NCBI GenBank assembly: GCA_016182495.1
Contig: JACPGK010000022.1
Span: 11,092 to 75,091, forward strand
Length of the DNA stretch: 64,000 bases
DNA from: Candidatus Kerfeldbacteria bacterium
Lineage (GTDB): Bacteria > Patescibacteriota > Patescibacteriia > UBA9570
Reading direction: 5' to 3'
Positions 8,192-18,224 of this stretch are shown here, piece after piece. The position numbers and the translations under genes were made by a program. Under the pieces are notes generated by a model. The model did no database searches, was not told the DNA's origin, and saw nothing but the letters and a program-made list of their open reading frames with translations. Positions within the stretch are counted from its first letter, which is position 1. Each line of letters starts with the position of its first letter.

Positions 8192-10885
8192 ATGGCACTG
8201 CTCACAAAATTATTTGGCGATCCTAGCGCCAAAGCAATTAAACAGTTGCAGCCAGTAGTGCAACGCATTACGGCCCTAGAAGCACAGTTTCAGTCATTGA
8301 GCGATGATGAACTGAAAGCTAAAACTGTCGAATTCAAACAACGGCTAAGCCAACATGAAACCCTTGAGCAACTTCTGCCAGAAGCTTTTGCCACAGTTCG
8401 AGAAGCTTCGCGCCGAGTGTTAGGGCAACGTCATTACGATGTGCAATTGCTTGGCGGCATGGTGTTACATCATGGTAAAATTGCCGAAATGAAAACTGGT
8501 GAAGGCAAAACGCTTACTGCTACTCTGCCAGTGTATTTGAATGCCTTAACTGGTCGAGGCGTACATGTGGTGACAGTGAATGATTATTTAGCTCGCCGTG
8601 ACGTTGATTGGATGGGGCGGTTATATCATTGGTTAAATTTGAGTGTTGGGTGCATTCAAAACCAAGGGGTGAGTTATCTATTTGATCCCGATTATCAAAA
8701 GCGGGCTGATACCACTGACCAAAGTACCGTCACCGATACCGAATTGGCCTTTAAAGTAGACATGGATAATTTACGAGCCGTTGATCGTACAACAGCCTAT
8801 CAAGCCGATATCACCTATGGCACCAATAACGAATTTGGTTTTGATTATTTGCGTGATAATATGGTGCAAACCATTGATCAGCGCGTGCAACGAGGCTGGT
8901 TATCTTATGCCATTGTCGATGAAGTCGATAGTATCTTAATCGATGAAGCCCGCACCCCATTAATTATTTCCGGGCAAGCCGAGGCAGCTACCAAGCAGTA
9001 TTATCGGTTTAGTCAGTTGGTGGAGCAATTGGTGGAAAATGACGATTATAACATTGATGAAAAAATGCGCGTGGCTACCTTAACCGATGGTGGCATTGCC
9101 AAAATGGAACAGTGGTTGGATGTGGTCAACATTTACGAAGCTGGCGGCGTAACTTTAGTACATCATATTGAGCAAGCCTTAAAAGCCCAAACCTTGTTCA
9201 AGCGCGATCGTGATTATGTCGTCAAAGATGGCGAGGTGATTATTGTCGATGAATTCACCGGTCGTTTAATGCCCGGACGTCGTTACAGTGAAGGATTACA
9301 TCAGGCCATTGAAGCGAAAGAACGCTTAGAAATTAAGCGCGAATCACGCACTCTGGCTACCATTACCTTTCAAAACTTGTTCCGGTTGTATGAAAAATTA
9401 GCCGGTATGACCGGTACAGCCGAGACAGAAAAAGAAGAATTTTACAAAATTTATAAATTAGATGTCGTTGTCATTCCAACCAATCAACCAATGGTGCGAC
9501 GCGATGGTTCAGATGCTATTTATCGTACCGAACGAGGCAAGTTTAAAGCCGTCGTCAACAAGGTTAGTGAGTTGCATCAGCAAGGGGTGCCAGTATTGGT
9601 TGGAACAATTTCAATTGAAAAAAATGAAATTCTGTCACAGTTATTAAACCAAGCTGGCGTGCCACACCAAGTGTTGAATGCTAAACAGCACGAACGCGAA
9701 GCCGAGATTATCGCGCAAGCTGGTCAGTCTGGAGCGGTCACCATTGCCACCAATATGGCTGGGCGAGGGGTAGATATCATCTTAGGCGGCAATCCGCCCG
9801 ATACTGTCCAGGCCGAGATCGTTCGCAGTGTTGGTGGTTTATTTGTGCTTGGTACCGAGCGTCACGAAGCCAGGCGAATTGATAATCAGTTACGTGGTCG
9901 ATCTGGTCGGCAGGGTGATCCCGGCAAGACGCAATTTTTTGTATCAATGGAAGATGACTTAATGCGTATTTTTGCCACCGATCGGATTAAAAAAATTATG
10001 GGTACACTGAATTGGCCCGAAGATATGCCCATTGAGAATGCCATTGTCAGCCGATCAATTGAAACTGCTCAAAAGAAGGTTGAGGGACATAATTTTGATA
10101 TTCGTGAACATCTCGTTAAATACGATGATGTCATGAATAAACATCGAGAGGTGATTTATCGAAAACGCAATGAAATTTTAAAATCCCCACCTGAAGATAT
10201 TAGTACACTGATCATGGAATTGGTTGAAAACGAAATTGAACAAATTGTATCATTTCATACCAATTTAGAAAATGAACATCAATGGAACATTCAAGAAATT
10301 TACGAATCAATCCGATCAATCTTTCCGGTGGATGAGCAGGTATTGGCTGATATAAAAGCTAAACAGCAGCAAGCCGGTAACAAACTGCAAGATGCCCAAG
10401 CACGTACTAGCCTGGTAGAATATTTGGTACGATTAGCTACTAACCGCTATCAAGCGATGGTGGCCGAAGTTGATAACGCCGAAGTGGTCTATAAAATTGA
10501 ACAAGGCTTTTATCTGCGCGCCATTGATACGTTATGGATCGAACATCTCGATCAAATGAGTTATTTACGTGAAGGCATTAGCTTGCGTGGTTATGGCCAG
10601 CGCGATCCATTAGTAGAGTATAAAAAAGAAGCCTACAGCATGTTTAGCGAATTAATCGCCAACATCCAAAAGCAAGTAGTGTACAGTATTTTCAAAATGG
10701 CCGATGCGTATTCGTTAGCACCATCGGAAATGAAGCAAGTGAAACAAGAGCTACACGGTGCTAAAAAAACGATGGGAAATGATCAAGCCGACTCGCCGAA
10801 CGACTTAGCAAAAGTAGGACGCAACGATCCTTGCCCCTGTGGCTCGGGGAAGAAGTATAAAAAGTGCCATCTCATTGGGAACTAA
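8192..10885 (+). CDS. secA: preprotein translocase ATPase SecA
   Basis: [48 protein letters not shown] motif [18 protein letters not shown] followed by an atypical LIGN end. Confidence 0.99.
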
Positions 10886-11028
10886 TTCTGCCCAAAAGCC
10901 ATAGTAAATTTGATGATTGCTGAGTTAGCAACTACCTAAAATAGGGGATGGGTTTGCAAAATAGGTAAGAAGGCTAACTTGACATCTAGTTGACACTTGT
11001 CAAGTAAAACATTATTATATTGACATCT

Positions 11029-15945: not shown

Positions 15946-18192
15946 ATGGCAAGTCAAAAAGGAAAAACCAAAGTAATAATCATCTCGTGTAGCGTGGCGT
16001 TGGGTTTTGCAGCTCTAGTTCTCATCGGCGCGTTTATTTTTGGCATAATTATAGGTTTTAAACAGAATTTAACATCAACCGAAAAGGCAGCCGTCGTTGC
16101 GAATTTACCAAGTATAGATCCCACTACGGAATTAACCACCAACAGCGCTGGCCTCACTGTGGTAAAAAACGTTTTGGAAATTATTTGGCAGAATACAGCT
16201 ACTCCCGAACAGCAAGTTATCGCGCTGGCTTCGGTTCCTGGAGCGACGGTGCGTGGACAAGTGACAGAATTTTATTTTACTGAAATCAGCGTACCAGATG
16301 GTAGTATCGCACTGGCCTTAGCCAACCTGGCTATACAGCCCGGCGTAGCGGCAGTTACGGAAGCGTATGTTGTCGAAGACAATTATGAACCACTCGATCC
16401 TGATTATCAAGATACGGCCAAAAACTGGTGGTTGAAACAAATTGAAGCTGAACCTGCCTGGGAAATTAATCAAGGCGATCCGACTATGCTGGTAGCCGTA
16501 ATTGATGCGGGATTTGAAGTAGATCATCCCGATTTAGCGAGTGTATTTAAAACCGATCTTGGCTTTAATTACAGCTTGCGTGACTGGAATGAAAAACCCG
16601 ACCATGGTACCCATGTGACTGGTATTATTGCCATGCAGCCTAATCAAGTTGGCCTGGTTGGCATTGCTCCAAATATAAAAATTGTGCCGTACAAAATTAT
16701 CACATTTGCCCAAATGGCCGATACCATTCGGATGGCCGCTAATACTGCTAACGTGCAGGTAATCTCCATGAGCCAGGGCTTTAATTGGTGGAATACCAAT
16801 CAACAACGGGCGGCTCAGGGTCTACCGGCTGTGACGACGGCTAACATGCAAACTGCGACACAAGCCGTTGATTTAATCATGCAGCCGGCGGCGGTTTACG
16901 CAAAACAAAAAGGCGTCATCTTGGTACATTCAGCCGGCAATGATGCTCAAAGTGCGGCTTATAATACTTTAAATACCACAGATGTAGTAACAGTGGCTAA
17001 TACCGATACAGTTGATGGTTTAGCGGCTTCATCTAATTTTGGGTCACCGGTGACAATTGGTGCTCCAGGCGAAGGTATTTGGAGTACAGTGGGCGGAAAT
17101 AATTGGACCTATCTATCCGGCACATCAATGGCAACACCATTAGTGGCTGGAACTATTGCCCTAATCCGTTCGGCAAATGCCCAATTATCCTTTGCTGATA
17201 TTGTGAACATTATTCAGAAAACTGGCGAACCTAGTATTTCAATAAGCTTGGATAAGCGTATCAATGCCTGGCAAGCTTTATTGGAAGTCACTCAACAGTA
17301 TGGTGTAAAGGGAATGGTGGTTAATAAAAATGGCGATCCAATTAGCGGTGCCACGGTGCAGCCAAAAGGTTTGCCGGAGTGGGGCTCGGTGAGTGACAAG
17401 TTTGGTCAATTTACCTTAGCGGCTATTCCACGAACCGGTCCTTGGGAAATTACCGGTAAGTATGGAGAAGACATTGGCACATTGATACTAACACCCCTAC
17501 CAGCTGATCAATGGGTAGCGCGCGATGTTGTTCTGACCTTAAAGAATCCTGCCGAACCGCAACTCGACGCCGTCAACTTAGGCTTTCATGGGCAAGCCAT
17601 TAGTCAATGTAGTTATCAAGATAGTGGTTTTCAACCGGGCGATGATTTTTTTGCACTGGGTTGTGATGCAACCGGCTTGTGTACGCAAACAACCAGTTTA
17701 GATATTCGTTTTGATGGTCCAATTACTTTTGCGATGCCGAGCAGTTTGGATGGCGCGTTTACCGGCGAGTTAAGTGAGTATTGGAAACAAAATTATCGTG
17801 ATGGCGAGCTTGATAATATTACCTTTAGTGGCAGCGCCACCCAGTTGGCCAAGAATGAACACATTATTCTCGATGTGATCGGCGTGCAACATACGTATAC
17901 GAAAGATATAGATATTCATGCGGTTGTTACCGGTACCATTGTTAATATCAGTAATCAGAATGATTTGCATTATAGCTATACCATTAGAGTTGATTCGTTT
18001 ATCATTGATCCATTCAAGATTAAAGTGCAAAATCCGCATTATCAAACGCAAACGGCGACATGTACATATACGTTCGATCCCAGCACCGATCCACTGTATA
18101 TCAGTCCAACTGATGGTTATTTTCATATCAGCGCTGATTATACTTTAGGTACGATCACCAATTACGATGCGTTAGAAGGTTTAGCCAATTAA
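15946..18192 (+). CDS. membrane-anchored S8 (subtilisin) serine protease with C-terminal beta domains
   Basis: N-terminal TM; triad VAVIDAG / HGTHVTG / SGTSMATP; SAGND oxyanion motif. Confidence 0.92.
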   Translation: MASQKGKTKVIIISCSVALGFAALVLIGAFIFGIIIGFKQNLTSTEKAAVVANLPSIDPTTELTTNSAGLTVVKNVLEIIWQNTATPEQQVIALASVPGATVRGQVTEFYFTEISVPDGSIALALANLAIQPGVAAVTEAYVVEDNYEPLDPDYQDTAKNWWLKQIEAEPAWEINQGDPTMLVAVIDAGFEVDHPDLASVFKTDLGFNYSLRDWNEKPDHGTHVTGIIAMQPNQVGLVGIAPNIKIVPYKIITFAQMADTIRMAANTANVQVISMSQGFNWWNTNQQRAAQGLPAVTTANMQTATQAVDLIMQPAAVYAKQKGVILVHSAGNDAQSAAYNTLNTTDVVTVANTDTVDGLAASSNFGSPVTIGAPGEGIWSTVGGNNWTYLSGTSMATPLVAGTIALIRSANAQLSFADIVNIIQKTGEPSISISLDKRINAWQALLEVTQQYGVKGMVVNKNGDPISGATVQPKGLPEWGSVSDKFGQFTLAAIPRTGPWEITGKYGEDIGTLILTPLPADQWVARDVVLTLKNPAEPQLDAVNLGFHGQAISQCSYQDSGFQPGDDFFALGCDATGLCTQTTSLDIRFDGPITFAMPSSLDGAFTGELSEYWKQNYRDGELDNITFSGSATQLAKNEHIILDVIGVQHTYTKDIDIHAVVTGTIVNISNQNDLHYSYTIRVDSFIIDPFKIKVQNPHYQTQTATCTYTFDPSTDPLYISPTDGYFHISADYTLGTITNYDALEGLAN

Positions 18193-18224
18193 GATAACAC
18201 TTCAAGAAGTGCCACGGGCAATAG
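18188..18224 (+). repeat. secA-tail repeat copy 5
   Basis: ATTAAGATAACAC TTCAAGAAGTGCCACGGGCAATAG; supplies the S8 gene stop codon. Confidence 0.95.

Follow-up and report, generated by a model that had tools for sequence, protein, structure and literature searches.

A tandem array of small gene units bounded by copies of the secA 3' end in a Candidatus Kerfeldbacteria bacterium

We analyzed a 64,000-nucleotide stretch of DNA (positions 11,092 to 75,091 of contig JACPGK010000022.1, GenBank assembly GCA_016182495.1; hereafter the window) from a Candidatus Kerfeldbacteria bacterium, and in particular an array of small gene units located directly behind secA. The window belongs to a genome of 1.305 Mb in 38 contigs (G000). 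Patescibacteria have very small genomes; few mobile-gene systems are known in them, and few genetic tools exist. In some of these ultra-small groundwater bacteria, units of one or two genes appear to have been inserted serially into the last codons of the essential secA gene.

The five-unit array behind secA

Five times behind secA, an 18-bp arm, CCATTWARATARCACTTC, was joined at an AA dinucleotide to a copy of the last secA codons. The features of the locus are as follows.

8192..10885, + strand: secA, the proposed integration target, 897 amino acids (aa) (Pfam SecA_DEAD, SecA_SW, SEC-C)
10859..10860, + strand: putative crossover dinucleotide AA, in the second Lys codon of K-K-Y-K-K-C-H (codon and covariation counts)
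10861..10885, + strand: resident tail K-C-H-L-I-G-N-stop, with the last two metal ligands (sequence)
11020..12171, + strand: unit 1 cargo, Fic protein (Fic_N and Fic, Pfam)
12195..12275, + strand: split junction 1, with arm at 12195-12213, AG, a 39-bp insert, AA at 12255 and a CHGQ-stop tail
12344..13369, + strand: unit 2 cargo, Fic protein, here Fic2 (Pfam)
13377..13416, + strand: junction 2, with arm, AA at 13396 and tail K-R-C-H-G-Q-stop
13479..14119: transposase remnants within unit 3 (13479-13745, minus strand; 13949-14119, plus strand; rve_2)
14109..14672, + strand: unit 3 cargo, HicB-like open reading frame (ORF; by position only) and HicA (Pfam HicA_toxin)
14685..14724, + strand: junction 3, with arm, AA at 14704 and a tail the same as that of junction 2 over 37 bp
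14790..15848, + strand: unit 4 cargo, Fic protein (Pfam)
15849..15888, + strand: junction 4, with arm, AA at 15868 and tail K-K-C-H-G-Q-stop
15946..18192, + strand: unit 5 cargo, S8 protease with its stop codon inside the arm (Pfam)
18185..18224, + strand: junction 5, with arm, AA at 18204 and tail K-K-C-H-G-Q-stop
18259..29666, + strand: accessory stretch with no detectable arms, encoding an AAA_14/DUF4143 ATPase, heavy-metal ATPases and an ABC transporter (Pfam)

A preliminary description of this DNA had reported the junctions as five copies of a 37-bp direct repeat with C-H-G-Q-stop tail variants. The copies were found at 13380, 14688, 15852 and 18188 and, in split form, at 12198/12252, and the tail codons read as described. 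The pattern ATTAARATAAYAC had five exact matches in the 1.305-Mb genome, all between secA and position 18224, where chance predicts 0.48 matches genome-wide and 0.0015 in 8 kb. Thus, the repeat is not scattered through the genome: all five copies lie behind secA. One arm-like match elsewhere (C17:7799) was discarded; it lies inside a coding sequence on the opposite strand.

The distances from the upstream stop codon to the arm were 26, 10, 15, 3 and -5 bp. The repeats had been placed within 30 bp of each cargo stop, which fits the first four junctions; the stop codon of unit 5 falls inside the arm. Pfam confirmed the reported cargo order of Fic, Fic, HicBA, Fic and protease apart from HicB, which is named from position only and had no match in Pfam or NCBIfam. 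A -35/-10-like promoter, seen in the sequence at 12294-12322, precedes the Fic gene of unit 2, and the Fic protein of unit 4 was 77-79% identical in amino acid sequence to those encoded behind secA in G001 and G009. The units had also been described as lacking any recombinase gene. No intact one was found; unit 3 holds transposase remnants only, with an rve_2 match (E 2e-4) just below the cut-off and 36% identity over 78 aa to a 432-aa ORF in the metagenomic locus L094.

At junction 1 the arm (12198) and tail (12252) are 41 bp out of register. The insert (12214-12254) opens with part of the arm in inverted orientation and shares its start and end with an insert in another family (L030 in G021), where the split is shorter. 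It may be a site of a second type, or a footprint left by an element whose target is the junction. Past junction 5, about 11.7 kb of accessory genes separate the array from position 29933, where the gene order common to relatives resumes with two genes, which we take to be FG-GAP/transpeptidase-like, followed by secD/secF-like genes. The accessory stretch at 18259-29666 possibly consists of older, eroded units or of one larger island.

The junction site and the putative crossover

Thirty-five junctions gave the consensus YCCATTWARATARCACTTC, AA, then R-MRN-TGY-CAY-GGN-NNN-stop. The arm is unrelated to the secA sequence that it replaces. Immediately before the AA, 12 of 13 junctions had TTC and one had TAC; TAT, which the search pattern allowed, was absent, whereas resident secA in the same seven genomes had TAT (five) or TAC (two) at that codon. 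The wider set gave the same result, with TTC in 38 of 45 arm sites and TAT in none, against TAT in 9 of 15 residents; in G123 the codon is TGG in secA and TTC at the junction. The codon following AAR was almost always a complete Lys or Arg codon, even where the two alternate in one array, and hybrid-looking codons, read by eye, were seen at 2 of 42 arm sites. The predominance of TTC over TAT, together with the intact Lys/Arg codon that follows, argues for an exchange within the AAR codon. We infer from these codon counts that the Phe codon belongs to the arm and that crossover takes place inside the second Lys codon. Integration in the last codons of secA, as first proposed, is retained, with the crossover one codon further right than had been implied; the TTC/TAC codon, formerly assigned to the tail, is reassigned to the arm.

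When arm sites were scored on the sequence left of TTC, AA followed in 42 of 45 (24 of 26 stretches). G021 and G349 had no site at the threshold used, and one or two false sites are expected, an estimate that rests on a background of 21 matches outside the array in G000. In the 42 tails, positions 1 and 2 of the Gly codon were conserved in 37 and 35 cases, respectively, and position 3 was free; T occupied the stop position in 33. Displaced tails therefore keep a coding pattern, although neither the Gly codon nor the stop was required by the junction-search patterns. The whole site forms a degenerate inverted repeat centered on AA, with three half-sites alike and the fourth lying in coding frame. 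Junctions folded no better than shuffled sequences (z -0.9 to +1.1), which ruled out an attC-type hairpin, and the AAC triplet was broken in the junction at 15852 and in most relatives.

Distribution, cargo and exchange of units

The junction pattern occurred at order level in 7 of 32 genomes, at class level in 9 of 401 and at phylum level in 6 of 401 (counts include G000); a reversed-pattern control gave no match in any of the three sets. The junction-bearing relatives were Kerfeldbacteria, Uhrbacteria or Patescibacteria. One phylum match (G351) was intragenic and is likely a chance match. A scan of species genomes returned 31 loci, of which 15, on 13 contigs, were arrays or single junctions in Patescibacteria-like DNA; the other 16 had no secA array and were judged chance. 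An arm-only scan of metagenomes returned 20 stretches. Seven had arm and tail, several being the same DNA as species-genome loci; one, L094, had an arm away from secA; 12 had no secA array and were judged chance, and in L060 secA lies 4 kb upstream but the arm is poor.

Wherever the contig extended far enough (15 stretches), secA headed the array; several arrays begin at contig ends. Arrays had one to eight junctions, and the 25 intervals between junctions measured 82-4043 bp (median 946 bp). Cargo and order differed between arrays, in line with the variation among relatives that had been anticipated, and there were signs of tail turnover. Judging from ORF likeness, we take the cargo of relatives to include Fic proteins, nucleotidyltransferase pairs, NUDIX and HIT proteins and ATPases. 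Some units carry insertion sequence (IS) insertions. In many relatives with no junction, secA almost directly adjoins the shared genes. If a 40-bp site in a universal essential gene takes up unrelated cargo and is restored with every insertion, it would account for an island that varies across several families, and would give an exact landmark by which gene gains can be found and ordered.

An Avd-like gene and a reverse transcriptase lie between a CHLIG-tailed secA and a junction in L324 and L065 (G802) and in L323 (G803), which suggests that a diversity-generating retroelement module can travel as a unit.

The strongest case for exchange is the Fic2 unit. From its tail through the next junction (12253-13417), its 1165 bp aligned with G017, a member of another family, at 84.7% nucleotide identity. 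The Fic2 proteins were 90% identical, compared with 57% for SecD and 54% for the SecA C-terminus, and both neighbors of the unit differ between the two genomes. Fic2-like genes were present in 8 of 32 order genomes at different array ranks, and a -35/-10-like promoter preceded the gene in all homologues inspected. In L313 (G004:C9), a helicase fragment with an end resembling the secA tail precedes a Fic2-like gene, a possible off-target insertion. G000 and G017 also encode a tRNA-linked large serine recombinase with 97% identity (G000 C19:757-2235; G017 C3:78083-78826), which points to recently shared mobile DNA.

All five displaced tails of the array were CHGQ-stop, like the residents of G001 and G008, and the CHLIG-type resident tail also ends secA in G004, G802 and G803. 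Tails generally tracked host lineage, as in the CHYP tails of G123, G192 and G801; such matching would fit units born or recycled within related hosts. In G007 (about 90 bp) and G065 (about 35 bp), secA and a junction share a copy of tail and leader, a duplication that re-integration would give. Tail swaps could not be placed on the SecA tree, in which family-level branches were mostly unresolved. Comparison of genomes suggests that the units are mobile. Among the public runs searched as assembled contigs, run X1, which may be the source of the assembly, tiled positions 9000-22000 at even depth; run X4 lacked coverage over unit 3, but about 86% of this run was read and other holes were present, so this is no evidence of unit loss.

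A model for accretion at secA and its alternatives

We propose that islands of about 1 kb with no recombinase of their own accumulate in tandem at the 3' end of secA by means of a recombinase supplied in trans, an account that we consider probable. The last secA codons would act as the attachment site. Each unit would comprise a secA tail (second Lys codon to stop), a promoter, one or a few genes and the 18-bp arm; in a circular form, the arm would meet the unit's own tail and create an arm-AA-tail site like that at each junction. A site-specific recombinase would then join this site to secA at AA. The incoming tail would complete secA with its Cys-His pair and stop codon, the old tail would land behind the arm, and the target would be rebuilt. 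Units would stack with the newest nearest secA, the resident tail at 10861..10885 having presumably been supplied by unit 1, and recombination between two junctions would excise or duplicate units.

Several observations weigh against this model. All stretches were seeded by patterns containing part of the arm or tail, and the consensus counts are thus partly built in. The secA-side half-site barely resembles the arm. One intact arm lies away from secA, in L094 (3610-3629), after a 328-aa gene and beside an IS-like ORF, with only the first bases of a tail. Three Fic2-like copies, in G003, G004 and a second one in G017, lie off secA arrays with no scored arm. The chronological stack envisaged in the preliminary description predicts an age gradient, and junction score correlated only weakly with rank (rho -0.32, P = 0.06, n = 36), most clearly in G711. 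No circle, excision joint or empty site was found in four public runs, searched as assembled contigs, two of them possibly the source. No recombinase was found in any arm-bounded unit; the serine recombinase loci scanned had no arm within a distance of about 1.5 kb, and no recombinase clade was found that tracks arrays. Among array genomes, G006 and G009 had no resolvase-family gene, nor did 4 of 15 further ones. For the tRNA-linked serine clade the count was 4 of 9 array genomes versus 85 of 392 others (P = 0.11); a second Xer-like clade gave 3 of 9 versus 51 of 392 (P = 0.11).

Both clades had been candidates. The first initially drew 13 of 14 members from array genomes; it was later found in 89 of 401 genomes, with members mostly ending at tRNA-like sequences. 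The second occurred in 54 of 401 genomes and was not found in G000, G001, G006 or G017. G000 encodes three tyrosine recombinases and six resolvase-family genes, none of them in the array. The nearest tyrosine recombinase lies about 38 kb away, has its own repeat array and scored below the integron integrase cut-off. Neither a Y1 transposase nor IS110 was found in G000, and IS110, present in one of five array genomes, was rejected as the mover. Searches of arrays, viral contigs, plasmids and phages turned up no parent element with this arm; the plasmid collection gave four short chance matches and the phage collection none.

As to enzyme class, a large serine recombinase has a little under an even chance, being slightly favored because the crossover lies at the symmetry center and requires no more than AA. 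A tyrosine recombinase, whether host XerA-like or phage-borne, is a serious contender at somewhat below evens; such an enzyme with a CACTTC spacer would better explain the invariance of those six bases, which is compatible with a 6-bp tyrosine-type spacer. Any other class seems unlikely. A recombinase that reads the arm, if identified, would be a candidate neutral integration tool for Patescibacteria.

One specific form of the model names the enzyme: a host XerA-like recombinase would use the arm and CACTTC as a dif-like half-site and spacer and exchange one strand at TTC/AA, the product would be resolved by replication, and secA would be a permanent integron-like platform. Nearly all array genomes have a XerA-like gene (NF040815, above the cut-off), which holds for no other recombinase type seen, and in G006 it is the sole tyrosine recombinase detected. 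The arm presumably resembles a Xer-binding arm, and the invariant CACTTC with its T-W-C ending would fit a spacer that needs short homology to the host codon. Yet the gene is nearly universal and equally present where arrays, which are patchy (9 of 401), are missing. Nor does secA lie opposite dnaA, being about 172 kb off the antipode in G123 and about 77 kb in G043, which rules out a location at the terminus in these two genomes. Elements of the IMEX or dif-module type use the chromosomal dif at the terminus or a XerCD site. Searches identified no dif site for comparison: a candidate palindrome (G000 C13:45260) lies in an rRNA spacer and is absent from five of five relatives, an inverted arm pair was unconvincing, and a loose pattern gave no more matches than its control. 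We regard this version as fairly unlikely.

The junctions could also be attR scars of temperate phages that integrated at the secA 3' end, with the genes between them as phage accessory leftovers. Phages do use this target. A prophage with a tyrosine integrase lies directly upstream of an eight-junction array in G711/L071 (G711:C1:225000-239600), a K-K-Y-K-K-C-H copy sits beside the integrase in five of seven viral relatives (the other two contigs end too soon), and phage-like genes follow secA in G063. However, phage sites retain the upstream K-K-(Y/F/W) codons and have no arm. In four scans of viral contigs the arm had no match, and it was absent from both sets of tail matches (4 and 58); no integrase remnant precedes any arm, cargo stops abut the arm, and one bounded unit, Fic2, has moved intact between families. 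Fic2 itself was not found in viral contigs. Since the phages use the same secA site with no arm, the units are not simple phage scars, and we consider a phage origin quite unlikely. It is very improbable that the units are fixed relics of local secA-tail duplication and slow gene capture with no dedicated recombinase: some arrays are short and eroded, tail-plus-leader duplications exist and IS remnants lie inside units, but the 18-bp arm, which is non-coding and has no relation to secA, is kept across orders and classes, most variation among displaced tails falls at third codon positions, and between families the bounded Fic2 unit is much more similar than core genes are.

The phages belong to a temperate family (L071/G711; L123-L129) that encodes a tyrosine integrase beside a decayed copy of the secA SEC-C codons. 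Like the arm-bounded units, they target secA and rebuild the C-H tail; unlike them, they carry a longer copy of the secA end, their own tyrosine integrase and no arm. At least two unrelated systems, phages and arm-bounded units, thus compete for the same few secA codons.

Integrons have IntI beside attI, attC hairpins with RYYYAAC/GTTRRRY cores, and mostly promoterless cassettes in direct orientation. The preliminary description had called the array integron-like, and the two are alike in having co-oriented one-gene units, a single insertion point and, after each unit, a site composed of parts of two neighbors. The array differs from an integron in having no adjoining integrase, no attC hairpin, promoters of its own and insertion inside an essential gene.

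According to PMC3146451, Dehalococcoides ssrA islands stand in tandem behind an essential single-copy gene, with a direct repeat of the gene 3' end preceded by a short conserved motif derived from the element; 15 islands have no integration module and 16 encode a serine integrase module. The secA array shares the tandem order, the 3'-end repeat with its short motif and the integrase-less members, but the islands described there target transfer-messenger RNA (tmRNA), whereas the array targets a protein-coding tail, has a median interval of under 1 kb and has no integration module that we could find (PMC3146451). In staphylococcal cassette chromosome (SCC) composites and ccr-less islands, as described in PMC13739063, elements sit in the last codons of rlmH, tandem order is read as chronology, and the att site is built around a central dinucleotide flanked by degenerate inverted half-sites, of which three are alike and the fourth lies in coding frame. 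The secA site matches this architecture in the last codons of a housekeeping gene, with AA at its center; SCC elements carry CcrAB or CcrC, are far larger, target rlmH and have a central GA (PMC13739063). Unlike SCC or ssrA islands, no element scanned here had a cognate large serine recombinase. Cis-mobilizable elements (CIMEs), according to PMC5704250, keep attL and attR, lack integration and transfer genes and accrete at the end of a target gene. The secA units likewise rebuild the gene end, leave the displaced copy downstream and lack such genes; CIMEs decay from known integrative and conjugative or integrative and mobilizable elements, whereas no parent with the arm was found for the secA units, whose size looks purpose-made and which appear to be exchanged between families (PMC5704250).

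The array works like ssrA islands, SCC composites and CIMEs and is not an integron. The preliminary description had known of no described system like it; tandem accretion of integrase-less islands is already described (PMC3146451, PMC5704250, PMC13739063), and the target, the host and the single-gene scale are new. The literature searched, from which subscription papers were mostly missing, did not mention secA as an attachment site, and a target list naming it may exist; this literature also held no publication on cassettes of secA or of Patescibacteria, or on dif in that group. The consulted part of the supplements of a large serine recombinase survey did not contain secA terms (PMC10083194). 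A broader proposal is that this is a stand-alone Patescibacteria cassette system with integron-like logic, unrelated to integrons, in which the Cys-His codons of secA are a self-renewing site, the 18-bp arm is the sole cis signal, no autonomous parent exists, and a host or roving recombinase captures, excises and reorders promoter-bearing genes of about 1 kb traded across orders and classes. We hold this view only tentatively, as somewhat unlikely.

Other loci in the window and genome

Two further loci of the window were noted. An integron-like locus at 55871-59230 has a short integron-type tyrosine recombinase gene (minus strand) followed by small genes, which are separated by long hairpin-like repeats near 56930, 57990 and 59155. 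At 41059-55700, about eight tandem paralogous genes encode cysteine-rich repeat proteins of about 520-580 aa. Elsewhere in the genome, the rRNA region at C13:40450-45300 contains ORFs that we presume to be homing endonuclease-like.

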